Program-made: the position numbers and the translations under genes | Shown here: piece after piece, positions 34,946-50,413 of the stretch | How the letters are laid out: each line of letters opens with the position of its first letter | Position numbering within the stretch: the first letter of the stretch is position 1 | Assembly: GCA_037190965.1 (NCBI GenBank) | Contig: JBBCKI010000029.1 | Span: 32,001-96,000, forward strand | Source: Chthoniobacteraceae bacterium | GTDB taxonomy: Bacteria; Verrucomicrobiota; Verrucomicrobiia; Chthoniobacterales; Chthoniobacteraceae | Reading direction: 5' to 3' | Length of the DNA: 64,000 nucleotides | Notes under the pieces: model-generated | Database searches by the model: none | What the model was told of the DNA's origin: nothing | What the model saw: only the letters and a program-made list of their open reading frames with translations

Positions 34946-35704
34946 CTATTTTGGTGTCAAAGAGCGGCGGCTAAGCCAGTCCTTGAAACGTGTGGAACCC
35001 AGGTGAGCATCTTTGCCCGGCACGAGGCTTTCATCGGGTACTATAATACCGAAGTAAAGTGCCTCAGGATCGACAACAATCGTCCGTGCGTCCCCGGTTT
35101 CGGTTAGAAGTTGCCGGACGAGTTCGTCTTGAGGGAACTGTTCAGGACCAGCCAGTTCCACGATTGCGTTCAAAGGTGCTTTGATGGCCATGTCGGCCAG
35201 AGCTGCCGCGACATCGTCTGATCCGATCGGTTGCATCAACACGGGTGGCAGCCGAACCACTTTCCCTTCTGTAGCCGATTCGGCAATGGCACTGACAAAC
35301 TCGAAGAATTGGGTTGCTCGAACGATGGTAAAGGGAATCCGCGAAGCCTTGATCAGATTTTCTTGGGCCATTTTCGCACGGAAGTAACCGCTGGCGAGCA
35401 AACGGTCGGTGCCCACCACCGAGAGCGCTACGTGATGTTTGACGCGGGCGGCTTCTTCCGCAGCAAGAAGGTGGCGCCCTGATGTTTCGAAAAACTCCAT
35501 CGCGGCTTTGTCTTCAAACGAAGGCGAGTTTGCCACGTCGATAACGACTTCAGCCCCGGTAAGCGCCTCAGTCAGTCCTTTGCCGGTAATAGTGTCGACA
35601 CCCGAAGAGCGAGACGCCGCCACCACTTCATGGCCATTTTCACGGAGGATCTTCACCACTTTGCGCCCGATAAGGCCACTGCCACCAACAACGGTAATTT
35701 TCAT
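34946..35704 (-). CDS. Atypical SDR / NmrA-like NAD(P)H-binding oxidoreductase
   Basis: VVGGSGLIG Rossmann motif; YFRAK; RATQFFEF. Confidence 0.9.
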   Translation of the reverse strand: MKITVVGGSGLIGRKVVKILRENGHEVVAASRSSGVDTITGKGLTEALTGAEVVIDVANSPSFEDKAAMEFFETSGRHLLAAEEAARVKHHVALSVVGTDRLLASGYFRAKMAQENLIKASRIPFTIVRATQFFEFVSAIAESATEGKVVRLPPVLMQPIGSDDVAAALADMAIKAPLNAIVELAGPEQFPQDELVRQLLTETGDARTIVVDPEALYFGIIVPDESLVPGKDAHLGSTRFKDWLSRRSLTPK

Positions 35705-35805
35705 TCCTTAACGTTCGTAAGTCGGCGAAAGGTTGCGTTGTGCCAATGATCCGTTTTTGTTTACAATAGGGCAAAATCTGTTACACGCGCACTTTAATCG
35801 TGCTT

Positions 35806-36618
35806 ATGGCCTCTGCCGCCTCGCTTGCCCGACTTAACCTTGCGACCATCGAGCTCTTTGCGCCGGGCTTGAATATGGGGAATTATGTGCAACGCGCGCA
35901 TGCCTTTATCGCGGCCTTGCTGCCGATTGACCTGAGCGGCTACGGGGCGCTCGACAATGCGACTGGCCAGCTGGACGCCCGCTTCGATCATCATCCGGTG
36001 GGGCTGCAAACTTCGCTGGAAGCTTACGGCCGGCACATGCACAAGTATGAGCCCTTCCGCTTCGATCCATCGGTTAATGGCGGAAAGCCTTACAGCGCGC
36101 GAGATTTTTTCACGAAGGGCGCTTTTCACGATCTCGATATTTTTCAGGAGGTGCACCGCCCGCTCGGGTATGAGGACCACTGCTTCGTCCATGTCCCCAC
36201 GGAGGCGGGGACCACGCTATTTTTCGGGCTCTTCCGTGAGGGGCTCTTTCGGGCTGCCGACAAGGAATTGCTGGCGCTCGGCCAGCCGCACCTGGCTAAT
36301 GCCCGCCGCCTCGCTTTTGCGCAGAGCGTGGTTCTGGACCCAGCGCTCGATCCCGGCGCTTTCACCCTGTTTGGCTATTCGCCCCGGCAGAGTGAGATCC
36401 TATATTGGCTCCTGCAGGGAAAAACGAATGCCGAAATTGCTGATGCCCTGCACCTCCGTATGGATACGGTGAGCGCCTACGTTCACGATATCTACGGCCG
36501 AATGGGCGTGAGCAATCGCGTGGCCGCCGTTCTCAATGCCATCGCCCTCGTTCGCTCGTCTTCCGCCGGGGCCGGGCGGGTAGCGTTTCAGGTGCCCACC
36601 GGGCGGACTCCCCCTTGA
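35806..36618 (+). CDS. LuxR-type HTH transcriptional regulator, divergent from the SDR
   Basis: SPRQSEILYWLLQGKTNAEIA..TVSAYVHDIY. Confidence 0.85.
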   Translation: MASAASLARLNLATIELFAPGLNMGNYVQRAHAFIAALLPIDLSGYGALDNATGQLDARFDHHPVGLQTSLEAYGRHMHKYEPFRFDPSVNGGKPYSARDFFTKGAFHDLDIFQEVHRPLGYEDHCFVHVPTEAGTTLFFGLFREGLFRAADKELLALGQPHLANARRLAFAQSVVLDPALDPGAFTLFGYSPRQSEILYWLLQGKTNAEIADALHLRMDTVSAYVHDIYGRMGVSNRVAAVLNAIALVRSSSAGAGRVAFQVPTGRTPP

Positions 36619-36906
36619 TCCCGAGCCGCCGCGCGATACCCCCGGCCTCTACCGGTTTGCCGAAGAGGTCTCTTGAAGACAGCGGCGTTGCCTCCATGGT
36701 CACACTGGCCAAGACTTTACGATCGTGGGCAGACTCAACCACTTAATCCTGCTTCAGTCCCCCAATCTTCGTTATAGACCCCGAGCCGTCATTCTTCGGC
36801 CCAAGCTGTCACAAAGCGCCTGAACAGATACAAGCAGAAGTCCCGGAGACTGAGTGGATTGATCGCGATTTGGCACAATCTGACGCGGGGTGCCAATTAG
36901 AGGAGA

Positions 36907-36930
36907 TTGGCTGCCTTACTAGGACTCGAA
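36907..36930. repeat. att core (copy of the tRNA-Gln 3' end)
   Basis: Identical to 48559-48582. Confidence 0.95.
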
Positions 36931-37107
36931 GGTACTGAGAAATCAAGTAAACAACAGGCTTGGCGGGTGGCGTTGACACTTCTGGGGACACACGGCTCTG
37001 ACGCGCTTAAGGATGAGGTTCTTGAGGTCTTGAGGCGATGGGGGAAGCTGCCTGAAGCGATGCGAGCGGGAATTCTTGCGATGATTCGGGCGTCGTCATC
37101 GATTTGA
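36907..37107 (+). other. Orphan reading frame that becomes the integrase C-terminus after excision
   Basis: Begins LAALLGLE in the same frame as the integrase at 48559. Confidence 0.55.
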
Positions 37108-37183
37108 GTAACGGTTTTCCTTTATGCCTGCATCCCCCGGATGCCGGTGTCAAAATTCGTACTACAAATCCTTGAAGCAATTC

Positions 37184-38350
37184 TTAGAAATCAACTTTCC
37201 CAAAATCTGATAAGGCCTGTTGCCACGGGCGAATCCATCGTCCATCGTTTCGAGACTCATCAAGAAAAATGTCTTTATCATCGAGTTGCTCCCATCTTTC
37301 CCCTGCCTCTCGGAGCCATTTCCTTACGAGAGTTCCTGCTTCCTTTCCTTGGAGCTTCTTTTCTGTGAGTCCGAACCAAGCGAGATACTGCCGCCAACTT
37401 AATCCGAGCCAAGGGATTTTTGGCTCACTCGAAAACTGTGTCAAAATCGCCTGTCCCCAAAGATTGTTTGAATCTCCCATCGCTAAAAACTGGGGGAAAT
37501 CACGTTGAAGTCGGGCGATATCGGCTGGCCGAAGAAATGCCATCAAACTTTGCTCGAACCAGTAAGGGAGAGCACCTCCGCCTCCTTCTTTCTCTTCATC
37601 AAATCTACTTTTTGTAAATCGTCTGAGGTTGAAGAACTTTCCTGTGGCACAGTGAGTTGCGCCTGCAGCCTTCATTAATACCAATTCGCTTGAGCAATGG
37701 GAAAGTATCACAGGACATCCCGCCCTTTCTAAGGCTCCTATGAGGACCATGAGATTCAGAACGCTAGAACTATCCGTTAGTTCGCGGCGAGGCTCAACAT
37801 TCGATTCGACGACCAGATAACATGCTTTCTGTGAACCGCTTGTGATCGCAGAAGCGATGCGAAAGGCATCATTCCTATCGCCGAGTTCATCCAGATGCAC
37901 TCCGAGTGTTAAGATGGGTCGAATCGAAGACGACTGAAGGTTTTCGGCCAACTCTTCGTAGTTGGCAACGCAGTGGCAAAGATAGTCGCTATTCCATTTT
38001 TTGGGGATGACAGCAGGTGAACAAATTGCATCGACGGCAATTCGTTTTCCGTAATCGGCGATTTTTCCAACGATGTCAGACCACCATCGAGAAGAGGTTA
38101 AGTCTGCTGTATCAAGATCTTGTGGAAAGTACGCTTGGTCAGGGAGACGGCCAGCCTCGCTTCGGGGGTAATATAACTGAGGGTCAAGAACGATGTCGTA
38201 TTCGGCTTTTCTTCGGAAGTTTACGATGTCGTTTTGCAACTCAAGCTCCGTGCGATTAACCGGACTGAGAATAATCCCTTCGAAGGTTTGAAGTCCCCGC
38301 TCTCCAACGAGGTTTTCGGAGCCGTGGCCCATTTGAAAATAAGCGCCCAT
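37184..38350 (-). CDS. Uncharacterised 388-aa protein, possible (beta/alpha)8 barrel
   Basis: Long ORF 5 nt downstream of the kinase; alternating beta/alpha pattern (GIILSP, IVLDPQ, AICSP, CYLVV, GATHCATG); the fold is inference. Confidence 0.75.
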   Translation of the reverse strand: MGAYFQMGHGSENLVGERGLQTFEGIILSPVNRTELELQNDIVNFRRKAEYDIVLDPQLYYPRSEAGRLPDQAYFPQDLDTADLTSSRWWSDIVGKIADYGKRIAVDAICSPAVIPKKWNSDYLCHCVANYEELAENLQSSSIRPILTLGVHLDELGDRNDAFRIASAITSGSQKACYLVVESNVEPRRELTDSSSVLNLMVLIGALERAGCPVILSHCSSELVLMKAAGATHCATGKFFNLRRFTKSRFDEEKEGGGGALPYWFEQSLMAFLRPADIARLQRDFPQFLAMGDSNNLWGQAILTQFSSEPKIPWLGLSWRQYLAWFGLTEKKLQGKEAGTLVRKWLREAGERWEQLDDKDIFLDESRNDGRWIRPWQQALSDFGKVDF

Positions 38351-38355
38351 AGGTT

Positions 38356-39201
38356 TTAATCTTCAAGTGCTGTTATAAGTTCCTGATGTACCGAAAATCG
38401 CTGAACAGGCCATGGGCGTACCATTTTTACCAAAGCCGCCAGCCCCTGCATCTCCATCTGTTTCCTAAACTCACCGGATGGCCCCTTCCTCGAGGCAGTT
38501 GCAGCCACGACTTGGGGAGGAGTCATGCCCTCAGCTTCGTAGGGATGACGAGCTGTTAGGGCTATACTGCCCACAACTCCAACCGAAAACTGATCCGTTC
38601 GCCAGTCAATCGACTGTTTTTCGTTATTGAGCTGCTCAGGTGACGAAAAATAGGGAGTTCCGGGTCCTTGAGGAAGCCAACTCATTGTAAGGGAGTGCTG
38701 AGAAAGATCACGAACGAGGCCAAAATCGACTAAAATGGGAATTTCTGAGTCATGACGAAACATGATATTCGCCGGTTTGATGTCCCGATGTACCAGCCGG
38801 TGCTCACGCAGCACTGCGATTGCTTGGACAAGCTCCAATAGAAGAGAACGGACTTCAAAGGGCGTAAAAAGTCGTTCAGCGAGACGATCTTCGAGTGTTC
38901 CTCCACCCAGAAACTCTTCAACGCAAACATCGTATTCGCAGCCGTTGTTCGCCCGAAAGGCTTTATAATCCAAAAGTCGAGCTATTCTAGTCGAAGTGCA
39001 GCGTTTTAAGGCTGCAATTTCTCTTTCAGTTCGGACGAAATCCGCTCTCGATCTGTCGATAACCTTTAATGCTACAATCTGCCCTTCAGGCGTTTCGGCC
39101 CGATAAGTTTCCTTAAATGCACCAGCTGCTTGAAATCCAATAATTTTGAATCCCAAAGTTCGACATGCCTCTTCGGCTACGCTATGAAGATTGCTTGTCA
39201 C
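38356..39201 (-). CDS. Hanks-type Ser/Thr protein kinase (kinase domain only)
   Basis: GAFKETY, VALKV, HRDIKPANIM, DFG, GTPYFSSPEQ, D.FS.G; GTG start overlaps the upstream TGA (GTGA). Confidence 0.92.
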   Translation of the reverse strand: MTSNLHSVAEEACRTLGFKIIGFQAAGAFKETYRAETPEGQIVALKVIDRSRADFVRTEREIAALKRCTSTRIARLLDYKAFRANNGCEYDVCVEEFLGGGTLEDRLAERLFTPFEVRSLLLELVQAIAVLREHRLVHRDIKPANIMFRHDSEIPILVDFGLVRDLSQHSLTMSWLPQGPGTPYFSSPEQLNNEKQSIDWRTDQFSVGVVGSIALTARHPYEAEGMTPPQVVAATASRKGPSGEFRKQMEMQGLAALVKMVRPWPVQRFSVHQELITALED

Positions 39202-39659
39202 CGTGATTCGCTTTCGACGTGCGTACGAGCCGCATCTGTTAGCCAAGGCAGCAACGGTGCATTTCGTTTCGGCTCAATTTCAATTTTTGGTTCGCCATTT
39301 TCCATGCAAATTAGGCCGATGCCCTGCCTCTGAAACTGCTCTTTTGACTTCAAGGCTGCTTTGCCTGCTCGACTGGGAAGCACTACGTAGCAGTAATGAG
39401 CAAAGCAGGCATTCCGACGAGCTTGTTCAAGGGCCTTTTTCCATTTTGACAATTTAGCCTCGAAGGCGTGCAAATCACCGCTAGTGCTGATACCGACGAT
39501 ATCGGTACGCCCAGAGGCGTAAAAGAATTCGAATCCGACGACATTACAAGGTATTGGGCTTTGAGCGGTGACTATCATCCGTGAGAGGGCATTTACGAGC
39601 ATTTCTTCCGTTGGATAGCAAGCATCGTTTTCGTTTTTTTTCCCAATGCGCGTGCTCAT
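39198..39659 (-). CDS. Small PD-(D/E)xK nuclease-fold protein (MmcB/sce7726-like)
   Basis: E..(n)..GRTDIV..HAFEAK..ALEQA..YVVLP..GIGL pattern. Confidence 0.78.
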   Translation of the reverse strand: MSTRIGKKNENDACYPTEEMLVNALSRMIVTAQSPIPCNVVGFEFFYASGRTDIVGISTSGDLHAFEAKLSKWKKALEQARRNACFAHYCYVVLPSRAGKAALKSKEQFQRQGIGLICMENGEPKIEIEPKRNAPLLPWLTDAARTHVESESR

Positions 39660-40085
39660 AGGCTTACTCCATTCAGTCCGAGGTGAACAAAAAAATTGAA
39701 AATGGCGTGTTTCAAAGATGAGTGAGCATTCATGCTCGGCCTCTAAATGCAAAGGTGTAAGTTTTTGGATTCGAGTCCGTTATGGCCTTCCAAAAGCATA
39801 CCTAACAGGTTTGCGACTTTAAGGCGGGGTAGAGGCCGTCTCGATATGGCGAGGTTTTGAAAATTTTGTCGATGATACTCTTTTGAGCCGCGTAAAGGGA
39901 AGTTGCTATCCGCAATTTCGAACGTCCGCCGAATCGCTCGCGCGCGCTCTGGTACTCGCCAAACCCGTCTGTGTCCGGTCTCTTTAAATTCAGCCAATGC
40001 TCCAAAACGTGTGAGCTTGCCGTCCATTTGGGTGTTGCAATCCGTTAGCTTGACCCTCGGAATCAGGGTGTTATCCTCTTGCTCC

Positions 40086-40242
40086 GACAAGCGGCAGCAG
40101 CCGCAGTGGGTTCGACCACTGCGACTGCCACTCTCGAGCTTGCCTTGCCGCCCCTTTGAGACCTTCCCGCTAAAGATAGGTTCTCATTGGGGCGACTTTT
40201 TTTCCACCGATCCAACAGCGGCAGGCTCAGCCTGCTGGATCG
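40086..40242 (-). other. Three adjacent stem-loops (candidate structured RNA or single-strand DNA signal)
   Basis: Hairpins at 40086-40144, 40147-40196 and 40208-40242; several mismatches are G-U pairs on the minus strand. Confidence 0.5.
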
Positions 40243-40257
40243 ATGCTCTTCTTCTCC

Positions 40258-40698
40258 TCATGCGCTAGCTCCTTTCTCCGGTTCGATGGAATCCGTCTGG
40301 CTCTGGAGCAGCTTCTCCAGAGCCTTGAAAAGGGGTTCCAGTTGAAACTTGTTTGTCTGCGCTTCCCTCATTACTCGCTTCAGGTACCCCTTAGTTTCCA
40401 AACTCCGCGCATATCCTCGAACGGCGGTTGGCGTAACACCCATTTTTTTAGCCAAGCTCTTGAAGCCCGGGTATGGTGCCTCTTTGTCAAACTTGTGTCG
40501 CATGAGGTGAATGACCAATAGCGCTTCCGCGTGGCTCAGTGGTTGCGGCAACGAGGAGTAGCTCTCGAGAAAAAACACCGAAATCGGGGTAAAACCACCC
40601 TTTGCTATAAGGGCAGGTGTCCACCGATCCGTCACCTGCTTGGAAGCGGGCTGGTCGGATGCAAGGCTGCGTTTTTTCGGCTTTAGGTTGATCTTCAT
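40258..40698 (-). CDS. Winged-helix (HTH_36/DnaD-N-like) DNA-binding protein
   Basis: GGFTPI..PYPGFKSLAKKMGVT..VRGYARSLETKGYL.R. Confidence 0.8.
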   Translation of the reverse strand: MKINLKPKKRSLASDQPASKQVTDRWTPALIAKGGFTPISVFFLESYSSLPQPLSHAEALLVIHLMRHKFDKEAPYPGFKSLAKKMGVTPTAVRGYARSLETKGYLKRVMREAQTNKFQLEPLFKALEKLLQSQTDSIEPEKGASA

Positions 40699-40934
40699 TG
40701 CAGACAGCGGCAACTTTAAGGCGGAGCAGGGCTTGTACAAGGAAATTTTTCGGGGGTTGCCTGCTATGTTCCCTTTTAGCTAATTCGAAGTTCTTAAATT
40801 TTTGCTATGTTTCGGTGTAATGGTTCTTTCATACCCATGAATGGTTTTATACACCCCCTCCTGTAACAAATGTTTTAGATGGGGGTGTAAGCATTTTTTT
40901 ATTTTTCGCGCCTCAAAAACGCTCGGAATCGTGT

Positions 40935-41585
40935 TCATTGGTTTGCCGCCACAACCCGTTTGACCCGTTGAACAGTAGAAACTCCCTTCCCGCTGATTTT
41001 CGCGGTGTGGCGCACGGAATGTCCCGCTTTCAAATGACGGAGGATGTCTTTGTGCTTTTGCAGAAAGAGATCGCGAGAAAGAGCTGCCCCTGTAGGGCGT
41101 CCCAGTTTTACTCCTTTTCGCCGCGCTTCGGCCAACCCCGATTGAATACGCTCGCTCAGTGTCTCGATCTCGTTTCGGGCCATTTCGGCAAGAAGTGCCA
41201 GCATAATTCCTGCCGCTGGATTTCGTTTTCCGTTCTGAAGAAGGGTTTCAACGCCTTGAGCGTGCCAGTAGAGAGACACGCCGCACTCCTCCAGTGTCTC
41301 CACAAATTTGTGGGTGACACTGTTTCTGCGTGCCAGACGGGATACCTCATGAACAAGAATCTTTTTGATCTTACCGGAAGCTGCCAGCTCCTCTGCGCGC
41401 TTTAATCCGTGGCGGTCTGATTCCTTTGCACGACCGGAAACCGTCTCACGGCAAATCTCGATGACCTCGTAGTTTTTTCGGGTGGCATGTTCCTGCAGCT
41501 CCGAAATCTGACGGTCGGTTTCCTGTTTAACGGTCGAAACGCGGACCAAGATCGCGACCGGCACTTTGGGAGCATTCTCTTCCAT
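40935..41585 (-). CDS. Serine recombinase, resolvase family
   Basis: VRVST..Q catalytic Ser; SRLAR; ERIQSGL..GRP; C-terminal HTH. Confidence 0.93.
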   Translation of the reverse strand: MEENAPKVPVAILVRVSTVKQETDRQISELQEHATRKNYEVIEICRETVSGRAKESDRHGLKRAEELAASGKIKKILVHEVSRLARRNSVTHKFVETLEECGVSLYWHAQGVETLLQNGKRNPAAGIMLALLAEMARNEIETLSERIQSGLAEARRKGVKLGRPTGAALSRDLFLQKHKDILRHLKAGHSVRHTAKISGKGVSTVQRVKRVVAANQ

Positions 41586-41601
41586 GTCGCGGAAAATTAC
41601 T

Positions 41602-41715
41602 AAGTGTGCTCAAATAATCAAGTGTTTTCATGAATACACCTAACGGGCAATTCCATGTCGATCACTCCTCTGTCGGTTCCCCTGAAAATTTGCGAACCAT
41701 TTTTTGAATACACCT
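41602..41715. promoter_or_regulatory. Putative res site / resolvase operator
   Basis: TGAATACACCT at 41631 and 41705; inverted variant AAGTGTGCTCA at 41602. Confidence 0.5.
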
Positions 41716-41746
41716 TCAATAAGAATCCCTATCAAATGTTTAACAT

Positions 41747-42271
41747 TTAGCTTGAGCGCGGCTTCAAAACCTTCCGACGCGGATAGACCACTATGAACTC
41801 GTCTGCTGCCCGCTTGATCCACTCGGCGCTTTTCCATCGGATCGTTTGGGGAATAGAATCCGCAACGTAAAAGCCCTTCTGGGTCGCGTCCACAAGAAGA
41901 ACGGCGTGCGGTTCAGCGTAACTGATATTATCGCAGGAGATGACCGGATTGCCTGCCTTAAGCGCGGCTCGGACGGCGCTACGGCTTCTGAGAGCTTTTG
42001 TTCTTACTCGGCACTCCTTCCGAAGAACCATTGCGATGTCCTCCAGTTGAGCGCCATCGGGGTTGCAATTTGTAAGATGGATTGCCTCTTGGTGGGACAG
42101 TAGCCGCCCGCTCAAAAAGTGGGTCGTTGCTTGCAAGACGGAAGCGCAACAAGAATATGGAAACTCTTGTTCGACGACCAAGACAGGTAGATGGCGAGCT
42201 TTCTTCGGACGCGGTAGTGGCCTCTGTGGGCTGTCCTCAAACCAAGACCGAATTGTCTCAATTAGCCCCAT
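41747..42271 (-). CDS. Stand-alone peptidase C39-like cysteine protease
   Basis: Q....SCCAS..HAVLLV..YVADS, matching the Q/C/H/D catalytic pattern. Confidence 0.75.
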   Translation of the reverse strand: MGLIETIRSWFEDSPQRPLPRPKKARHLPVLVVEQEFPYSCCASVLQATTHFLSGRLLSHQEAIHLTNCNPDGAQLEDIAMVLRKECRVRTKALRSRSAVRAALKAGNPVISCDNISYAEPHAVLLVDATQKGFYVADSIPQTIRWKSAEWIKRAADEFIVVYPRRKVLKPRSS

Positions 42272-42605
42272 TCTTGGCTTCAGCGATGATCCGTGCGTTG
42301 TAGAGCTTAACTCGCTTCAGCGCGGAGAAGATCGATACAAGATAGTTTACAGAGAGGAATATCAGCCAAATGGGGGCCGATTGATCGAAGTACACCCAAG
42401 TAAAGAACCAGCCCAGCCCCGTGGAGACAACGCCAGTTAGAGCCGAAGCGTAGAACGTCCCGATGAAGGGGAAAAACATGGCTAAGAGCGCGGCTACCGT
42501 TGGATTCTTCAATTTTTGTTGGAGTTCAAGCAGTTGGAAGATTGAGTCATCTCGTCGGTTTGGCGTAGTGGGAAGCGGTGGGGGCTGGGCTACCTGTGGT
42601 TTCAT
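42258..42605 (-). CDS. Small membrane protein (TM2-like)
   Basis: KNPTVAALLAMFFP..G.FY; 2-3 TM helices. Confidence 0.7.
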   Translation of the reverse strand: MKPQVAQPPPLPTTPNRRDDSIFQLLELQQKLKNPTVAALLAMFFPFIGTFYASALTGVVSTGLGWFFTWVYFDQSAPIWLIFLSVNYLVSIFSALKRVKLYNARIIAEAKNGAN

Positions 42606-42629
42606 GGGGCTAGTAATTAGGCGGTTTTC

Positions 42630-44450
42630 TCAAAGGTAGCCAAGCGCATCACGTTTCTGCCGCAAACTGCGAATTTCTGCATCGTTGGTGCCCCCCGTTT
42701 TCTCAAGCTCCCTGATCTGCGAATCGATAATGGCTCGCTGGGCATCTTTAATTTTTCGCAATTCGGCAGCTTCTTTAGATGGAGGGTCAATAGTCTCACG
42801 AGGAGACCTTAATGGAGCGCTATGATCTGGCTTTGCGTTATCCAAGTAATAGTTCACCAGAGCTTCCGACTGCTCCTTGGTGAGATTGATGTTAGGAAGC
42901 CGGGAGTTCTTGCCCCCGCTTTGCGCATACGATCCCCGCTGAAGAGGACTTGAATTGAAAGCATGGGAAGGCGCGGAACTACGGCTTGCTGCAACATTGC
43001 GAAGTCGCTCCGCTTCAAGCTTTTCCCATTCCTGTCTCTTCACCGCCTCTACGGCTTCCAACTGCTCACGACTTTTCTTTGCGAGGGAGGCTTGCGCATT
43101 CCTGTCTGCAATAAGAATTGATGCTGCGAGGTATAGGTCATCCGTAAGGATATCCTTGGAAACCTCAAATCGGCTTTGGCCCGAGCGCACAAACAAGGTC
43201 TCTCCTCGATCTTCGATTTGCTCAACTTTTGTTGCCGGCGGAAAGCCTACCACGCCGTCATCGGTAAAGAAGGTTTGATGCTGGGTCGTGTAAAACATCC
43301 CTTCAGGAGCTTTAGCCCGTACCAAGGGGGCGATAGATGCGCTCCAACAATAGGGGCCACCTCCAGCACACGTGTAAGTCCCGGCAACCGTGGTTCCATC
43401 AGGGGAAATCTCTCCATCGTAAACGCTGTCGCGCTTGTCGCTGCTGTTCTTCGACTGGATGTGAACCTTGTTTCCTTTTCGGGTAACAAAAGCTTGGAAT
43501 GTCTTTGTTCCTCCGCGCTCGCCATCTTTCAGGGAAACATCAAAAATCGTAGAATAGCCCCGACGAATCCATTGCCCTTTCCATTCGCCGTACTCTTGAG
43601 CCTTCCAAACGGTTCCTAGAATATCGTCAGTAACAGACTTTTGTTTTTCGACGGCGGCTCTTTGTTCGTCAATGGAACCGGCACCGGGCGCTACTTGTGT
43701 GCTCGCCTCTACAGATGGGGCCGCGCTTTCAGCAGGGGTCTCAAATCCGCTCAATCCCATCAGCCCAGCGATAAGGAGTAGGCTGTAGGCGAGGCATAAG
43801 CTCGTAAGGACCCGCCCCTTGCCTCTGAAAGCTGGGTCTCTCCTAATCTGCGCACGCGCTAGATGCCCAAGAACGAGCGTTGGAACTCCAAGGACAGCGA
43901 AGATCACTCCGATGACGATCAAAGCGGCATGTGGGCCGAAGGTATGCAGAACGGGGCCGTAGGAATTGGGAAGAAATCCCACGAGAAGAAGGGCGAAAAT
44001 CAGGGAGAGTCGCGCTTTTAGAGGAACCAAGCATTGCTCGCCTTTCCCTAGCGCCCACCAGACACCGCCTATCAGGAAGAAAAGGGCTTGGAGAACAAAA
44101 ATTCCTTTCTCTACCGGTGAGGAAACCAATTTAAAGGCATAGAGTAGCCCGAGACCGAAAAGGATGAAGAGGCCCCCAATTGCCCGCTTGGTAATACCCT
44201 TTATTCGTGACTCCTCGTAGGCATTTGGCTTCTGAATCCCTTTCTCTGGGAGCCTTGGAGCGGGCGCTTGGGCTTCGGGGGCCGGGCTATGAGAGATTTC
44301 TGGCACCTGAAAGATGGGTTTCCACTCATCCATGCCCTCATACCAAGCGAGATCCATCGGATAGAGCTTTCCCGAAGCGAGCATTTGACGGGCTTGCTCT
44401 ACCGAGTACGGGCCAAGCCGCCTATCGTTCCTTCCAATGTAGATGTCCAT
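42630..44450 (-). CDS. GYF_2 (DUF4339) domain multi-TM protein with DUF4190-like segment and soluble C-terminus
   Basis: YIGR..LGPYS..LAWYEGMDEWKP; LGHLARAQIRR..GKG. Confidence 0.82.
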   Translation of the reverse strand: MDIYIGRNDRRLGPYSVEQARQMLASGKLYPMDLAWYEGMDEWKPIFQVPEISHSPAPEAQAPAPRLPEKGIQKPNAYEESRIKGITKRAIGGLFILFGLGLLYAFKLVSSPVEKGIFVLQALFFLIGGVWWALGKGEQCLVPLKARLSLIFALLLVGFLPNSYGPVLHTFGPHAALIVIGVIFAVLGVPTLVLGHLARAQIRRDPAFRGKGRVLTSLCLAYSLLLIAGLMGLSGFETPAESAAPSVEASTQVAPGAGSIDEQRAAVEKQKSVTDDILGTVWKAQEYGEWKGQWIRRGYSTIFDVSLKDGERGGTKTFQAFVTRKGNKVHIQSKNSSDKRDSVYDGEISPDGTTVAGTYTCAGGGPYCWSASIAPLVRAKAPEGMFYTTQHQTFFTDDGVVGFPPATKVEQIEDRGETLFVRSGQSRFEVSKDILTDDLYLAASILIADRNAQASLAKKSREQLEAVEAVKRQEWEKLEAERLRNVAASRSSAPSHAFNSSPLQRGSYAQSGGKNSRLPNINLTKEQSEALVNYYLDNAKPDHSAPLRSPRETIDPPSKEAAELRKIKDAQRAIIDSQIRELEKTGGTNDAEIRSLRQKRDALGYL

Positions 44451-44528
44451 AAATCGCGGTTTCCTCTGGTGTGGATTTGAATACTATAGTCTGTGTCGCG
44501 ATGGGTCAACGGTCTTTAGCCTCGGTGA

Positions 44529-44768
44529 GTGTCCCGAGAGGCGTTTGCCAACGTGCTGAAGACCTTACGCGGTCAGAAAAAGCTCTCCCAAGAGGAGTTG
44601 GCCTTTCGGGCCAACGTGCATCGGACGTATGTGTCCCAATTAGAGCGGGGGCTAAAGTCACCGACCTTGGATACCCTTTCTCTAATCTGTGAAGTCCTTG
44701 AGATTCGGGTTTCCGATCTGCTGCGTCTGGTCGAAGAAGAAGCAGATGCCCGAAAGACGAGGCGTTGA
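44529..44768 (+). CDS. XRE-family HTH regulator
   Basis: LSQEELAFRANVHRTYVSQLERGLKSPTL. Confidence 0.9.
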   Translation: MSREAFANVLKTLRGQKKLSQEELAFRANVHRTYVSQLERGLKSPTLDTLSLICEVLEIRVSDLLRLVEEEADARKTRR

Positions 44769-44926
44769 ATCTCTCAAGCGCCTCTTCGCAGCGTGGGGAC
44801 TGGAGGCAAAAGTTTGATTCGTTCAGACTCATGACGGGACGGCTTACTCCCCGATTATTCTAAATGCGAGTAAAATATTCTTCATGAGAATACATCCGGC
44901 GCAAGAATCCCGTAGAAGGGCGGCAG

Positions 44927-45178
44927 GTGAAGAAGACCCGCCAATCGAAATTCAAAAACGTCATCGGCGAGCGCGTTCGGCTCGCTCGGGTCTCAATGAC
45001 GCCTCCGGTTTCTCAAGACGATCTATCGGGCAAGCTGGCACGTCTAGGCGTCCAAATCACTCAAACGTCTCTTTCGAAATTGGAGAGCCGCCAGCGCTAC
45101 GTACTTGATTACGAGGCGCTTGCCATTTCAAAGGCGTTAAAGGTGGAAATCTCTTGGCTTTACGGAGAGGGAGGGTGA
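44927..45178 (+). CDS. XRE-family HTH regulator
   Basis: IGERVRLAR..SQDDL..LSKLESRQRYVLDYE. Confidence 0.82.
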   Translation: MKKTRQSKFKNVIGERVRLARVSMTPPVSQDDLSGKLARLGVQITQTSLSKLESRQRYVLDYEALAISKALKVEISWLYGEGG

Positions 45179-45181
45179 TCG

Positions 45182-46429
45182 CTACGCGGCAGCAGCCAGC
45201 TCAAGAGAAGGGAATTCCTCTCGGAGTTCTTTGATTTTCACCGTAGGCCGAAAGCCGAGCACTTTTTCATACTCTTCCTCCAAGACGCCTTTGAATTCGG
45301 CTGTGTGTTTTCCCGTGGTGACAAGGCAATCGTGAATGCTGATCATGCAGACGTTGCCTGAGGTGTATTTTTGGCCAATTCGTATGGCGGCGCTATTGAT
45401 CACGATATCTGATTCTATTTTCTGGATTTTTTTTGCCAAATCACGCTGGTGCCTCCGCTTTTCGGCTTTGATACGATCAGCCAGTATTGGAAATTCAGCG
45501 ACAAATATCTCCCAAAGCTCCGCTGGAGGAGCGTAGGCTGAACCAAAGAAGATAGCTCTGAAAACGGCTTTCTTGAATTCGGTTTTGACCTCGTCATCTT
45601 CTAAGTTGAACGGAAATTTCAACCTGCTGTTCAGAAATGCGTAGAACGTGTTGCCGCTGACAATGGCTACGTACCTCGATTTTTCCTCGCATTCCTCCCG
45701 GTACAGCAGCGACGCAATGCATGGATGTGAGCCGGAGATATCAATGGAGTACAGCGGCTCTCCATTGTAGGTCAGAAACGGCCTCAATTTCCGGGGCATG
45801 TTTGTCAAGTTGTTATAAAACCGCCCCTGTGCATCGCTGCTCACGCGAAAGTAGCGCTGCTCCAGCCTCAAAATTGCATTCAGCCAGAAGTTCTCTGATC
45901 TATCCTTCGTAAATGCTGTCAATTCGAGAAGCCGCCGCGCGCCAGCAGCATCGAAGGTCAAAGTCTGCAAGCTCTTATAGATTAACCGCTTTCCCGAATG
46001 TCCCTCGATTTCACGCAGGTTCTCTTCGAGTTTAACGGTATTTATTCTTCTTCCGAACCGGCTATTCGAGATAGGAGTCGTTTTGAATCTACACCCCCAG
46101 AACCTTTTGCCGATTCGATAAGATTTACTTTCTTGTTGTGGAGAATAGGTTTCACGATTCCGTTTCTTTCTGACCTCAATAATTCCGCTTTTGAGAAGAG
46201 CGTCTTTTACATCGCTCAGGTGATGCGACGTGAGCAGTCGTTCCAGTCGTTTTGAATATACGGGGAAATATTCAGCCCAAGTTTTATCGAGAATTACGTG
46301 CTGAAGATAAAGTGAACTTATCAAGTAATTGCATTTATCACGGAATAACGATCTATTCAGGTAGCTCAATCCGCACCGGTTCAGCTCTTCCTCCAAATCA
46401 AGGTTTTCGGGAACAAAGAAACAATCCAT
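45182..46429 (-). CDS. Minimal family-A DNA polymerase-like (TV-Pol-like) protein
   Basis: GRFYNNLTNMP..LR; motif A IDISGSHP; motif B K..VF..IFFG; IQKIESDI; motif C IHDCL. Confidence 0.65.
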   Translation of the reverse strand: MDCFFVPENLDLEEELNRCGLSYLNRSLFRDKCNYLISSLYLQHVILDKTWAEYFPVYSKRLERLLTSHHLSDVKDALLKSGIIEVRKKRNRETYSPQQESKSYRIGKRFWGCRFKTTPISNSRFGRRINTVKLEENLREIEGHSGKRLIYKSLQTLTFDAAGARRLLELTAFTKDRSENFWLNAILRLEQRYFRVSSDAQGRFYNNLTNMPRKLRPFLTYNGEPLYSIDISGSHPCIASLLYREECEEKSRYVAIVSGNTFYAFLNSRLKFPFNLEDDEVKTEFKKAVFRAIFFGSAYAPPAELWEIFVAEFPILADRIKAEKRRHQRDLAKKIQKIESDIVINSAAIRIGQKYTSGNVCMISIHDCLVTTGKHTAEFKGVLEEEYEKVLGFRPTVKIKELREEFPSLELAAAA

Positions 46430-47069
46430 GCCTCATTTATAGCTAGGGAAATCGATTTTTATAGGGGATTTTTTTCTTTGAAGAGGGAAATGGGAGGAAA
46501 AGCGAAGAACATATGAACTGTACTATATTTTTTCTTGATGTACATCATCATGTTCAATGGTATTCATGCCTTTATTCCCTATGATACTCCTGTTTAAACG
46601 GGTCTTTGTTATATTCACTTAATGATTCTGTGTACGGTTCTCTGGCATGTTGGCCTATATCTTCAAGCAATAGTAGCCCCCGAATTGCGGGTTAAAGGGT
46701 TAATCGCTATTAATCCTTTCAGAAGTGCAGCAGAAGCACGGGCGTGGTCTCCCGCGATTTTCGAAGCAAAAGGCTCAGGAGGGGCATTTACGCTCGATCT
46801 CGGGCTATCTCTAGATTGGGAATCAATCCCAAAGAATCGGGAGAAATAGCGCGGCTCCCCTATGCCTTAGCATGAAATCGGGCTTTTTGATACTTTTCAT
46901 AAATGCGTGGGGGGGATGTCGATCGATCATCGCAACGAGAAGGGAGGAATCTTGGAATAATTCTGGTAACGACAAAAAATCCAAAAATCGACCTATAAAA
47001 TCGCCAGCTCACGGCTATAAATGAGGTATCGGCATTAGGCCGATGAGAAACAATAAAAAATAGGAACTT

Positions 47070-47267
47070 ATGGTAATGGATAGTGATGAGAGGTTGATCG
47101 ACTCAAAGGCTGTAGCCGCGATGCTCGGAATTAGCGAGCGAGGCGTTTGGCGAGCGGCAGGTTGTGGGGCTATTCCTGCTCCAATTAAAATTAGAAGAAG
47201 TGCTCGCTGGCTAAAGTCGGAGTTGGATGAGTTCTTCAAGAGAGCAAAAAATACAAGAAATAACTGA
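47070..47267 (+). CDS. AlpA-family excisionase/regulator
   Basis: LIDSKAVAAMLGIS..G.IPAPIKI..SARW..SEL; directly upstream of the integrase. Confidence 0.85.
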   Translation: MVMDSDERLIDSKAVAAMLGISERGVWRAAGCGAIPAPIKIRRSARWLKSELDEFFKRAKNTRNN

Positions 47268-47283
47268 ATGTTTACGAATGCAT

Positions 47284-48744
47284 ATGATTAACTACGTCTA
47301 CAAAAAGAGAAAGAAAGTTGATGGTAAAACGGTTGCGTCTAAATACTACTATGGCCGTTATCGCTTGGAGGGTGAAACCAAAGTTACTCCTGTGTTTCTT
47401 GGGACCGCTGATAAGCAGGTGGCCAAGAAGCTCCTGAGTGACATAATTGTTGAAAAACAGAAACAGAAAGCCGGGTTAGCTCCGAGTTTCGGAAAAGATT
47501 CTTTGAGTAAGCCCATCGAAGAGCATATCGAGGATTTCGCCACCGATATGAAGGAGAGAGCAAGCGGTATGCATGTCTATACCATGCGGAAGAGGCTTCT
47601 TAAGCTTGCGAAAGAATGCAAATGGAAACATCTTTCAGATGCCACATCCGATTCGTTCGTTTCTTGGCGGTCGGCGCAAACTTTCGCCCCTTCAACGAGA
47701 AATCAGTACCTTGAGTATCTTTGCAGATTCTTTAAGTGGCTGGTTTCCGAAACGAAGCGTTTTCCCAACAATCCCTTTCAGGATTTGGGAAAGGTTGATG
47801 AGAGAAAAAAGGCTCGCGTTAGGAGAGCCTTCAACGATGAGGATTTGCAGAGGGTCTTGGATGTCGCTGGGGAATGGCGGGTTGGTTATCTGGCGGCTGT
47901 TTATACGGGGCTTCGGCGTGGCGAGTTAGCATCTCTTGAATGGAGGCATGTTCATCTTGACGCTGCCTCCCCTTACTTGACGCTTGAAGGGGAGTTCACG
48001 AAAAATGGGGAGCCTGCAAGCCTGCCTCTCCATCCTGATTTGGTTGAACAATTGGATCGAGTCAGGCCGCTGGAGGCTTCGCCATCGGAAAAGATCTTCT
48101 CCAAGAGGACTTTGCCGACCATTTACATGCTCAAAAGGCATCTCCAAAAGGCGGGGATTCCATTTAAGGATGAATCAGGCAGGCAGCTCGATTTTCACTC
48201 CTTGAGATACACGTTAGCAACCAACCTTTCGTTAGGCAACGTTGCCCCGCGTATTGCAATGGAGATGATGCGCCACAAGGACATTCATCTGACGATGAAC
48301 ACCTACACGGACTCCAGCCGTTTGGAGCTTCACGGAGCAATCAAAGCTCTCCCATCGTTCTCCTTGCCCGCCGCAACCTCGAGGAAAAAGGGAGGTGGTG
48401 AGGTGACACAGATGGAGGCACAATCTCCAGACTCTGATGGTCAAGAGCTGGCACAACCTGTCGCGGGAGGGTCTTCGGGCCTTCCCGCCCATTCCCCTGA
48501 AACTGAGGGCTTTAGGCGTGAACTGACGCTGCTTGACATCGCCCGTCACGAAGAGGGGTTGGCTGCCTTACTAGGACTCGAACCTAGACAAACAGATCCA
48601 GAATCTGCAGTGCTACCATTACACCATAAGGCAAGGTGGGATCCGCTTTTCCGTGCGGGAGTGGAGTATCTAGACGGAAAAGAGGGTTGGCGCAATAGAA
48701 AATCGCTCGGGATGGGGCGAAAATGTTGGAGGTCAGGCTCTTAG
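47284..48744 (+). CDS. Tyrosine integrase; the ORF runs through the att core and antisense across the tRNA
   Basis: R (TGLRRGEL), K (TKNG), HxxR (FHSLR), H (MRH), Y (TMNTYT). Confidence 0.93.
   Translation: MINYVYKKRKKVDGKTVASKYYYGRYRLEGETKVTPVFLGTADKQVAKKLLSDIIVEKQKQKAGLAPSFGKDSLSKPIEEHIEDFATDMKERASGMHVYTMRKRLLKLAKECKWKHLSDATSDSFVSWRSAQTFAPSTRNQYLEYLCRFFKWLVSETKRFPNNPFQDLGKVDERKKARVRRAFNDEDLQRVLDVAGEWRVGYLAAVYTGLRRGELASLEWRHVHLDAASPYLTLEGEFTKNGEPASLPLHPDLVEQLDRVRPLEASPSEKIFSKRTLPTIYMLKRHLQKAGIPFKDESGRQLDFHSLRYTLATNLSLGNVAPRIAMEMMRHKDIHLTMNTYTDSSRLELHGAIKALPSFSLPAATSRKKGGGEVTQMEAQSPDSDGQELAQPVAGGSSGLPAHSPETEGFRRELTLLDIARHEEGLAALLGLEPRQTDPESAVLPLHHKARWDPLFRAGVEYLDGKEGWRNRKSLGMGRKCWRSGS
48560..48633 (-). 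tRNA. tRNA-Gln (anticodon CTG)
   Basis: TGCCTTA/TAAGGCA acceptor stem; GCAGA-TTCTGGA-TCTGT anticodon arm; GTTCGAG T-loop; encoded CCA; 74 nt. Confidence 0.96.
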
Positions 48745-48750
48745 GGGGTG

Positions 48751-49488
48751 TTATTTCCCAAGCGGGCGGCTGACGTTGGCGTCTGCGGGGGGGATGAACT
48801 CAAAGGTGGCGGCGGGGAGGTCGGTGCGACGCGGGTTGGCGTAGACGGTGCTGACGCGGTCGCCTTTGGGCATTTGAAAGTCGGTTCGGGTGACGTTGAG
48901 GTCGGCGTCGAGGATGACGGTGAGCTGCTGGACGATTCGCTTGAGATTGCTTTTCTTGGGCGTGAGCGTGACCCGATAGCCGGGGTTTTCGTGGGCGACG
49001 TCGAGATTGTAGAAGGCTTCCACTTTACCGAAGTTCAGCCCGGCGGTGAGGGCGGCCATGGCGTCGTCGAACATGGCGCGGTGGCCCAAGGTGTAGAGTT
49101 CCGCTTCCTTGAAGTTCGGGTAATACAGCCACAGGACGCTTCCGTTGCTGACGGTGAGGCTCGGGCTGGAGCCGGTGACTTCGCGGCGGAATTTGTTGGG
49201 CGCATGGAACGCGATGGTGCCGGCGCTGGAGACGGGCTTCTTGAGGAGCCGGGAGGTGCGCTCCTCGGTGAAATTGGCCTGGAGGGAGGGGTGCTTCGCT
49301 TTGATCGATTCCAAGCGTTCCAGAAGCGCGGCGCGCTCGGGGGCGGTGAGGGTTTGGGCGGAAGCGCTCGGACCGGACGCCGCCAGGAGGGCTGCGGCGA
49401 CAAGGGCGTTGCAGGCGCTGAGCGCGGAGAGGGCTCGGCGCAGGAGTGGGAAGCGGGGGGCGAAGGCGGGATGGCTAGGACGTTTCAT
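48751..49488 (-). CDS. LolA-like outer-membrane lipoprotein carrier protein
   Basis: Signal peptide; LQANFTEER..GTIAFHAPNKFRRE..SNG..LWLY.P. Confidence 0.85.
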   Translation of the reverse strand: MKRPSHPAFAPRFPLLRRALSALSACNALVAAALLAASGPSASAQTLTAPERAALLERLESIKAKHPSLQANFTEERTSRLLKKPVSSAGTIAFHAPNKFRREVTGSSPSLTVSNGSVLWLYYPNFKEAELYTLGHRAMFDDAMAALTAGLNFGKVEAFYNLDVAHENPGYRVTLTPKKSNLKRIVQQLTVILDADLNVTRTDFQMPKGDRVSTVYANPRRTDLPAATFEFIPPADANVSRPLGK

Positions 49489-50413
49489 TTTTCCAGATGG
49501 GGACGTAGTTGAACCATTGGTCGGGATGCGGGCGGATGATCTTCTCGAAAGCAGTCGCGATGTGTTGCGTATTTCGCGTGAGGCTCTCGCGGCGGTCGGC
49601 CATCGGCTCCAGCGCAATGGCGGGTTCGGCAAAGGCATGATAGCGACCGCTTGGGTTCTGCAGGACGAAGGCGGGGATGATGGCGGCTCCGGTGTGCTGC
49701 CATAAAAGAACCGGCGCGGTGGAGAAGGTGGTCTCGCGGTCGAAGAATTCGACGGGCGATCCGGTTTCGGCATAAGGACGGTCCACCAGCATGCAGACGA
49801 TTTCGTTGCGGCGTAGCGCGGCGATCATCTCCACAAACGCGAATTTGTTCTCCCCGACGGCAATGGTGCGGATGCCGAGCCGCTTCCGGTATTCGTCGCG
49901 CGTGCGCGTCAGCTCGCCGGTCGGCTCTTCCAAGGTGACGACATTGATGGGCCAGCCGTCGAGCGCCAGCAGGGTGCCTCCCAATTCCCAATTGCCAAGG
50001 TGCGCGGTGATCAGGACGACGCCCTTCCCCAGCGCCAGCGCGGCCCGCAGATTATCGATGCCGCGCCATTCATCGAGGAGCGCGCGGATGTCGTTGGGCT
50101 GGGCGGCGGTGCAGTAAAAGTAATCGGCCAGCATGCGGCCGAAATTGCGGAAGTTGTCGCGGCAGAGCCGGTTCAGCGTGGCGTTGTCGGCTTGTTCGTT
50201 TGGCGGTTCGGTTTGTTTTGTTCCTTCTGCCTCGCGCGACGCCATGACGCACTGGAGGTTTTGCCGAAGGGCGATGCGTGAGCCGGTATTGGTGAAATAA
50301 CTGGCTAGCCCCAGAAGGCTGCCAATCGCGCGGCAAAGCGGGCGCGGCAGGAGACGCGCGAGGGTGTACCCAAGCCGAAAGCCGCTGTCGCTATATCCCG
50401 GGTGGCGCTTCAT
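49475..50413 (-). CDS. LpxL/HtrB-like lysophospholipid acyltransferase
   Basis: TAHLGNWE (HX4E), LVDR, HPDQWF. Confidence 0.9.
   Translation of the reverse strand: MKRHPGYSDSGFRLGYTLARLLPRPLCRAIGSLLGLASYFTNTGSRIALRQNLQCVMASREAEGTKQTEPPNEQADNATLNRLCRDNFRNFGRMLADYFYCTAAQPNDIRALLDEWRGIDNLRAALALGKGVVLITAHLGNWELGGTLLALDGWPINVVTLEEPTGELTRTRDEYRKRLGIRTIAVGENKFAFVEMIAALRRNEIVCMLVDRPYAETGSPVEFFDRETTFSTAPVLLWQHTGAAIIPAFVLQNPSGRYHAFAEPAIALEPMADRRESLTRNTQHIATAFEKIIRPHPDQWFNYVPIWKNETS

Follow-up and report, generated by a model that had tools for sequence, protein, structure and literature searches.

An attachment-site core inside the integrase gene of a Chthoniobacteraceae integrative element, and a conserved hairpin tail beyond it

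We analyzed a stretch of 64,000 nt from Chthoniobacteraceae bacterium (assembly GCA_037190965.1, contig JBBCKI010000029.1, positions 32,001-96,000 of the forward strand), here called the window and numbered from its first base. It carries an 11.65-kb integrative element at a tRNA-Gln gene, and the attachment-site (att) core of this element lies inside the 3′ third of the gene of its own tyrosine integrase, downstream of the catalytic tyrosine. One copy of the core is continued by host-derived codons, while the other is continued, in the same phase, by a short tail that is conserved among the integrases of related elements.

The integrase of the window and its two C-termini

The element is delimited by two exact copies of a 24-nt core (TTGGCTGCCTTACTAGGACTCGAA on the plus strand) at 36907-36930 and 48559-48582, which bound 11,652 bp; of the 5 families of direct repeats reported in 35000-50000, theirs is the only pair with 100% identity. 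The tRNA-Gln(CTG), the single tRNA gene of the window, occupies 48560-48633 on the minus strand, and the core repeat thus comprises the 3′-terminal 23 nt of this gene and one further base. The features at the two ends of the element are the following, with lengths in amino acids (aa) where they concern the protein, ORF for open reading frame and pLDDT for the predicted local distance difference test score.

36907-36930, plus strand: attL copy of the core, 24 nt, an exact repeat of 48559-48582 and an antisense copy of the tRNA-Gln 3′ end
36931-37107, plus strand: detached 3′ end of the integrase gene, 58 codons and a stop, with the integrase phase kept through the core
36975-36992, plus strand: P′-arm direct repeat (GACACTTCTGGGGACACA), 45 nt after the core, a candidate arm-type site in a position as in the relatives
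36994-37098, plus strand: conserved helical hairpin module of 35 residues (GSDALKDEVLEVLRRWGK / EAMRAGILAMIRASS)
47070-47267, plus strand: excisionase-like helix-turn-helix (HTH) gene directly upstream of the integrase (Pfam HTH_17, E 1e-6)
47284-48744, plus strand: tyrosine integrase in its integrated form, 486 aa (PF00589, E 1e-13)
48307-48558, plus strand: poorly conserved integrase linker and P arm of attP, variable in the alignment (pLDDT < 50 in its counterpart in the viral integrase L082)
48405-48422, plus strand: P-arm direct repeat (GACACAGATGGAGGCACA), 136 nt before the core
48559-48582, plus strand: attR copy of the core, 24 nt, read as LAALLGLE within the integrase ORF
48560-48633, minus strand: tRNA-Gln(CTG), the integration target (ARAGORN), whose 3′ 23 nt come from the core
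48583-48744, plus strand: host-derived replacement tail, 53 codons and a stop, antisense to the tRNA and its upstream flank

PF00589 is the only family found in a Pfam scan of the integrase at E values up to 0.01; its match spans about 47896-48318 and scores 51.9 bits against a cut-off of 27.1, and the protein also matches the PHROG 1 integrase (E 2.5e-43). An alignment of 41 sequences shows no variation at R211, E214, K240, H305, R308, H331 or Y341, i.e., the catalytic R..K..HxxR..H/W..Y set is intact. The start at 47284 (MINYVYKK) agrees with the aligned N-termini of 40 homologues, and the database gene call begins two codons earlier, giving 488 aa. With the codon of the catalytic Tyr341 at 48304-48306, the att cut falls 84 codons past this residue, and the body of the enzyme (residues 1-360) is unbroken in one ORF.

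An earlier note on this DNA had claimed that the integrase reads LAALLGLE across the core at 48559 and runs on for 53 antisense codons, that the core copy at 36907 opens a same-frame ORF of 58 codons, and that recombination would turn a 486-aa integrated form into a 491-aa circular form with a helical-looking tail and the same catalytic core. Translation and coordinates bear this out. In the right copy, LAALLGLE is followed by 53 codons antisense across the tRNA up to a stop at 48742-48744, and in the left copy, read in the same phase, by 58 codons ending in WGKLPEAMRAGILAMIRASSSI with the stop at 37105-37107. The 433 codons of 47284-48582 give 486 aa together with the 53 codons of the integrated state, and 491 aa together with the 58 codons that excision would restore. 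The alternative tail contains two predicted helices, and the active-site residues all lie upstream of the core. The open stop-to-stop piece at attL starts at 36901, placing an in-frame stop two codons upstream of the core. Open frames of 53 and 58 codons could have arisen by chance, and it is the conserved in-frame tail in the relatives, described below, that argues otherwise.

Three soil-metagenome runs contain the region or parts of it as assembled contigs. Neither the joint 48582-36931 of the circle nor the joint 36906-48583 of the empty site was present among these contigs, which cannot show absence. In run X1, one contig has a different sequence before the tRNA-Gln 3′ end (48559), unlike the attL flank of the window; it may represent the same tRNA in another organism, or the unoccupied site of a relative.

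A tail conserved in frame with the integrase in related elements

A word-indexed protein search with the window integrase gave 92 relatives, and the C-termini of most of them resemble translated antisense tRNA (..GFEPVTFRV, ..CRARTRT, ..WSGRQDSNLRPRG..). At the DNA level, the single integrase as query found no related loci, whereas the 41-sequence alignment, searched against contigs of one genome per species, detected 566, of which we examined the best 80 with up to 10 kb of upstream DNA each. Nearly all of these 80 loci belong to the Verrucomicrobiota, Planctomycetota/Phycisphaerae, Kiritimatiellales, Victivallales and allies. A protein atlas returned only unnamed Planctomycetota clusters with scores of at most 0.90. 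The integrase ORF overlaps an opposite-strand tRNA gene in 58 of the 80 loci (16 isotypes), and six more have a tRNA within 300 nt. The replacement tail of the relatives stops 3 to 155 nt past the core and varies with the tRNA. On this comparison of sequences, the self-spanning att layout is shown to be the rule in a large integrase family of PVC (Planctomycetes, Verrucomicrobia, Chlamydiae) bacteria.

A repeat of at least 14 nt of the tRNA end was found upstream in 18 of the 58 tRNA-overlapping loci. When this attL copy was read in the phase of the integrase, a conserved tail appeared in 16 of the 18 (the exceptions being L018 and L037), with the consensus ..SQIDSQ.. (D/E)L..V(V/I)..W..LP..L(K/R)AA(I/V)LAIV(R/K)... 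Since these 16 tails came from a reading in one frame, we searched the six frames of all loci, and of the whole 4.2-Mb genome of the window, with a hidden Markov model (HMM) of a 31-residue block of the tail (E < 1e-4). Matches were obtained in 25 of the 80 genome loci, in the viral locus L121 and in the window, every one of them on the integrase strand. The tail of the window (E 2e-13) is the sole match in its genome and aligns with the tails of 26 relatives.

In 20 of the 25 tail-bearing genome loci, tail and integrase share one frame. An exact core of 23-53 nt is shared by both copies in 17 of them, including L025, which was outside the training set of the HMM; L040 and L052 have an identical core peptide in both copies, and L037 carries a 2-nt indel in its core copy, to the right of which the frame agrees. 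A metagenome locus, L221, an island of 8.9 kb, is in frame as well. The in-frame loci cover nine tRNA isotypes and all three phases of the T-loop TTCGAA (..GFEP.., ..RTRT.., ..DSNL..), and the frame is therefore set by each element and not by the tRNA. The earlier note had proposed looking for a W..LPEA.RAGILAM motif beside tRNA-fragment att sites and testing its frame with the cognate integrase, and had called the element PVC-type; the W..LP..AILA tails of the 20 loci and L221 agree with the former, and the related loci, together with the relatives of a neighbouring MMPL transporter gene, place host and relatives among PVC-type bacteria.

None of the other five of the 25 loci (L036, L062, L071, L079 and L032) offers a matched pair that can be tested. 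The sequence of L079 is masked by N, and in L071 the tail is fused directly to a truncated second integrase fragment; L036, L062 and L032 are taken up below. The fragment in L071 (5880-6395) goes from the catalytic motif into the tail with no intervening core, which fits a deletion between two arm repeats (..GYTQIRAQI..).

Copies that are not integrated complete the picture. On the viral contig L082 (49 kb), which contains no tRNA in the 21 kb examined, the integrase is a single 528-aa ORF that runs from the catalytic body through the tRNA-like ..VGLEPTE.. into ..DADLQGIVDAWPDLPADVRKMIVGVVKL... Its tail is weak by the tail HMM (E 0.47), yet its alignment with the other tails holds column by column. 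On a second viral contig, L121, an uninterrupted stretch of 574 codons contains both the tail (E 3e-6) and the integrase match, and in six fragmentary database proteins (P0077, P0080, P0119, P0147, P0150 and P0189) the catalytic motif is likewise followed by a tRNA-like core and then by the tail. Read from their sequences, the unintegrated copies are thus shown to carry integrase and tail as one ORF.

The hairpin module, the arms of the attachment site and the neighbouring genes

The W and L of the W..L motif are invariant in 27 tails. Over an ungapped block of 27 codons from these tails, the proportion of nonsynonymous differences (pN, median 0.42) is lower than that of synonymous differences (pS, median 0.76) in 349 of 351 pairs, which are not independent of one another, and the block is short. 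The comparison shows, as far as such substitution counts can, that the tail is under selection at the protein level.

AlphaFold2, run on the alignment of the tails, predicted helices at residues 6-23 and 26-40 of a 42-residue query, with mean pLDDT values of 92-97 for the three 10-residue blocks of residues 11-40. In the full-length model of the L082 integrase, an N-terminal beta domain (predicted strands within 3-47) belongs to a folded body of residues 1-386, which is followed by 106 residues with pLDDT < 50 (387-492) and then by the same two helices at 495-506 and 509-521, where the blocks covering 501-520 have mean pLDDT values of 96 and 92. The body of this model aligns with lambda integrase in its full-length form, the N-terminal domain included (1z1b, E 2e-9, 351 columns), and also matches other tyrosine recombinases. 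The disordered linker is best read as attP DNA that need only stay open.

A profile of the 27 tails, searched against 1.84 billion cluster representatives, matched 10,323 proteins at E values up to 1e-3 and 227 at up to 1e-10. Among the best 150 matches, 143 are at most 160 aa long (median 94 aa) and carry the module at the extreme C-terminus; such short database proteins are gene-caller products at attL. No family covering the hairpin module was found in Pfam or PHROGs. The 66-residue tail of the window alone had no match among longer proteins in a search whose word index is too coarse at that length. In three database proteins (P0101, P0104 and P0183), the W..LP hairpin module is repeated in tandem, with 2 to 4 copies each; the 286-aa P0183 has four of them behind a signal-peptide-like N-terminus. 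The module may thus also occur outside integrases, and the tandem arrangement in these three proteins hints that modules pack on each other. P0233, a repeat-rich host protein of 526 aa, reads through an attL core into the tail and represents an accidental fusion ORF made by integration.

To look at the DNA around the core, we compared the 260 nt before it with the 200 nt after it in the 18 loci with both arms, using 100 shuffles. The best local match between the arms exceeds all 100 shuffles in 16 of the 18. This match is a direct repeat of the type GACTCACAAATAGACTCACAA, with one copy 95-177 nt ahead of the core and the other 28-66 nt past it. Its sequence varies among elements (CACAAA, CACGAA and CACTAA variants) while agreeing between the two arms of one element. 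This behaviour is as expected of arm-type integrase binding sites, and the repeats look like candidate sites of this kind. Their position within the ORF would explain the peptide motifs TQIxTQ, SQIDSQ and SLIASLN that flank the core. In the window, the pattern GACACNNNTGGRGRCACA, written post hoc, matches only 48405-48422 and 36975-36992, with 0 matches expected in 100 shuffles.

Several observations weigh against the explanation proposed below for tail and integrase. Only 25 of the 80 loci could be tested, the other islands being longer than 10 kb or reaching contig ends. In L036 and L062, the integrase ORF ends before the core (decayed). L018 (9495-11272) has a 24-nt repeat of a tRNA-Gln end 1.75 kb from the integrase end, and the HMM found no tail there in any of the six frames; the att pair may be spurious here, or the locus may be what remains of an element that kept only its integrase. 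The substitution counts suffer from the dependence between pairs and the shortness of the block mentioned above. The hairpin is predicted with equal confidence alone and in its context, and the model is therefore silent on its docking onto the enzyme. The arm repeat of the window is degenerate, with a local alignment score of 26 against a shuffle maximum of 28, and the pattern given for it was drawn up after both copies had been seen. Finally, five loci have an integrase, a tRNA-Ser-like core and a tail that are adjacent but out of frame, and would need the following shifts.

L032:11021-11406: -1
L164:938-1144: +1
L183:557-814: +1
L188:9941-10156: +1
L189:4062-4298: +1

In the four loci that require +1, the P arm has a repeat of the CCCGAA type and the P′ arm one of the CACAA type, while L032 has no repeat common to both arms above shuffles. 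Because the arm-repeat types and the frame offsets differ, we infer that these five loci would be tandem junctions of two different elements at one tRNA-Ser and not true attP sites. Tails of the matching repeat type and phase were found elsewhere (P0166, P0233), and the other partner is contiguous and in frame in P0189. A programmed frameshift at the five junctions was considered and rejected, since the shift differs (-1 versus +1) and the arm repeats are of unlike type.

Tails also occur apart from integrases. A metagenome scan, made with a single consensus-like tail (that of L032) and thus biased towards one tail clade, gave 80 loci, 38 of which have less than 1.1 kb of upstream DNA and are unclassifiable; 33 of the 42 with enough upstream DNA have no integrase in the locus. 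Two inverted tail modules stand within about 350 nt of each other in L165 (5584-5918), L166 (9813-10147) and L213 (1368-1700), as would result from back-to-back integration of two elements.

The HTH gene directly upstream of the window integrase matches PHROG 66, "excisionase and transcriptional regulator" (E 1e-8), and a similar ORF stands just upstream of the integrase in 20 of the 57 testable relatives. The remaining cargo, annotated with Pfam and PHROGs, comprises the following genes and several further ORFs without any family.

37184-46849: element cargo as a whole
38356-39246, minus strand: Ser/Thr kinase
40258-40740, minus strand: HTH_36/DnaD_N replication-initiator-like protein
40935-41585, minus strand: serine resolvase/invertase
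42630-44450, minus strand: GYF_2/DUF4190 protein, 606 aa

No phage structural (virion) gene was found among the ORFs scanned with Pfam and PHROGs, and we therefore speak of an integrative element and not of a prophage. The best named relatives of the MMPL transporter gene adjoining the element belong to the Verrucomicrobiota, Chthoniobacteraceae.

A proposed state-dependent integrase and its known counterparts

Two precedents that the earlier note had named for an attP within int, the Myxococcus phage Mx8 and archaeal elements of the SSV type, are described in reviews. According to one review, the int gene of Mx8 contains attP and acquires a different 3′ end on integration, the modified integrase retaining an altered activity, and Mx9 is similar. 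The window integrase resembles that of Mx8, as far as these accounts go, in being a tyrosine integrase, in having attP in the 3′ part of int and in targeting a tRNA 3′ end. It also shares with Mx8 a small HTH gene directly upstream of int (uoi in record AF396866), and Mx8 Int has a tRNA-like ..STGLEPV.. before its long tail. Magrini et al. in 1999 and Tojo et al. in 1996 reportedly found for Mx8 that 112 residues are replaced by 13, that the prophage form is less active and that sequences on either side of the core within int are required.

The likeness does not extend to the sequences. Apart from membership in one superfamily, the window integrase and Mx8 Int show no significant similarity (BLASTP E 0.17), the tail profile reaches an hhalign probability of 0.7% against Mx8 Int, and the upstream HTH proteins of the two gave no alignment. 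Among cultured phages, the best integrase match is 25.7% identical, and Mx8 is outside the best 30 of 178 phage records. Unlike in Mx8, the detached part in the window family is a short conserved hairpin common to a very large family, and the element, found in PVC hosts, is a small island that carries no virion genes. By analogy of arrangement, the window integrase is to be taken as working like Mx8 IntP/IntX and is not a sequence relative of Mx8 Int.

The "suicidal" integrases of the SSV type, pTN3 and pT26-2 are reported to have the att site inside the ORF and a tRNA target, with the gene partitioned on integration, and the window integrase shares these three properties. In the SSV type, however, integration divides the gene between its N-terminal and catalytic parts, which is considered to abolish activity, and the family carries Pfam PF16795 (Phage_integr_3), as a review states. 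In the window integrase, on the other hand, the catalytic body is intact, the N-terminal part is not separated, and the Pfam scan found PF00589 only and not PF16795. The relevant passages of a 2021 review call self-disrupting recombinases exclusively archaeal and leave Mx8 unmentioned. As for lambda, the predicted fold of the L082 integrase aligns with 1z1b/1z1g (E about 1e-9, about 350 columns), and direct repeats stand on both arms of attP in the window family, with conserved spacing relative to the core. The attP of lambda is located outside int, and the C-terminal tail of lambda Int, which has a role in controlling catalysis, follows the tyrosine directly and not after a 100-residue linker. 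In the full-text literature searched, which covers few subscription journals, we found no description of the present arrangement for Verrucomicrobia, Planctomycetes or their relatives.

We consider it probable that the att site inside the integrase gene goes together with a hairpin that is lost on integration and regained on excision, the full-length form being proficient in integration and the resident form weaker. The gene order is the catalytic body, the disordered linker with the P arm, the core, and then the P′ arm with the 35-residue hairpin. Integration into the tRNA detaches the hairpin, leaving it at attL without a conserved start, and the integrase at attR ends in 53 meaningless codons; excision would rejoin hairpin and integrase in frame. 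By analogy with Mx8, only excised or incoming DNA would yield the full-length form, which would be the fully active and integration-proficient one, and the resident truncated form would be less active or reliant on the neighbouring excisionase-like protein. A weaker resident form would make integration self-limiting and the integrated state stable. Most likely, by the same analogy, the hairpin would work through protein-protein contact, for example by self-association of integrase protomers. The state-dependent switch of activity, stability or directionality that the earlier note had suggested would rest on the conservation of the tail and the Mx8 analogy. Going one step further, we put forward only tentatively that the hairpin is a built-in directionality device, i.e., a self-associating module on a 100-residue leash that would be needed for the integrative complex, removed by the enzyme itself on integration and regained on excision, which would make these integrases a widespread bacterial counterpart of the archaeal "suicidal" ones.

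Other explanations differ mainly in what they make of the two forms. Integrase and attP could be packed compactly with no regulatory meaning, the hairpin being used in the excised state only, e.g., for integration or for contacting a factor of the host or the element, and the integrated form being fully competent in excision. The catalytic residues and the whole folded body are indeed intact in the integrated form, and an excisionase-like gene is present. However, the tail is lost in every integrated copy and is nevertheless conserved, in frame across nine tRNA targets, from which it follows that the full-length form would do something that the short form cannot, i.e., that there is a state-dependent difference; moreover, the prophage form of Mx8 is reported, in the accounts cited above, to be altered in activity. 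We therefore regard plain compactness as unlikely. The opposite view, that the integrated form is inactive as in the archaeal SSV type and that excision needs full-length integrase from a tandem or superinfecting element, would accord with the junctions between integrases and foreign tails in L032, L164, L183, L188 and L189, which suggest frequent tandem stacking at a single tRNA, and with the many decayed or orphan tails, such as those of the 33 metagenome loci without an integrase among 42. Against it stands that about 58 residues past the catalytic domain are removed here, whereas the SSV-type split separates the N-terminal from the catalytic part, and that no sign of inactivity was found, and this view appears improbable to us.

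It is very improbable that the tail is a small separate gene, or that DNA sites of the P′ arm are what is conserved, with the shared frame a coincidence. The 143 short proteins with a C-terminal module among the best 150 profile matches would suit a separate gene, but they are the output of gene callers at attL. Independent frames would agree in one case out of three, whereas agreement was found in the window, in L221 and in 20 of the 25 genome loci; the unintegrated copies have single ORFs; and no start is conserved, the piece opening within the tRNA-derived core or shortly ahead of it, and this core varying from element to element. Arm-type repeats do occur in the tail ORF, but the repeat is upstream of the hairpin block and not inside it, and the pN < pS in 349 of 351 pairs speaks against selection on DNA sites. 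These comparisons leave the divided integrase with a state-dependent tail as the reading we prefer.

An enzyme that rewrites its own gene by its own reaction was formerly a curiosity of phage Mx8 and some archaeal viruses. The layout described here makes such self-rewriting a conserved design across the Verrucomicrobiota, Planctomycetota and related phyla, with a tail profile that matches thousands of protein clusters, and the published claim of archaea-exclusive self-partitioning integrases, as worded in the source cited above, needs qualifying. The 35-residue module offers a defined handle on the C-terminal control of tyrosine recombinases. Many short "hypothetical proteins" are explained as orphaned integrase ends marking attL, and the tail together with the tRNA fragment may serve as a practical marker for delimiting integrative elements in PVC genomes.

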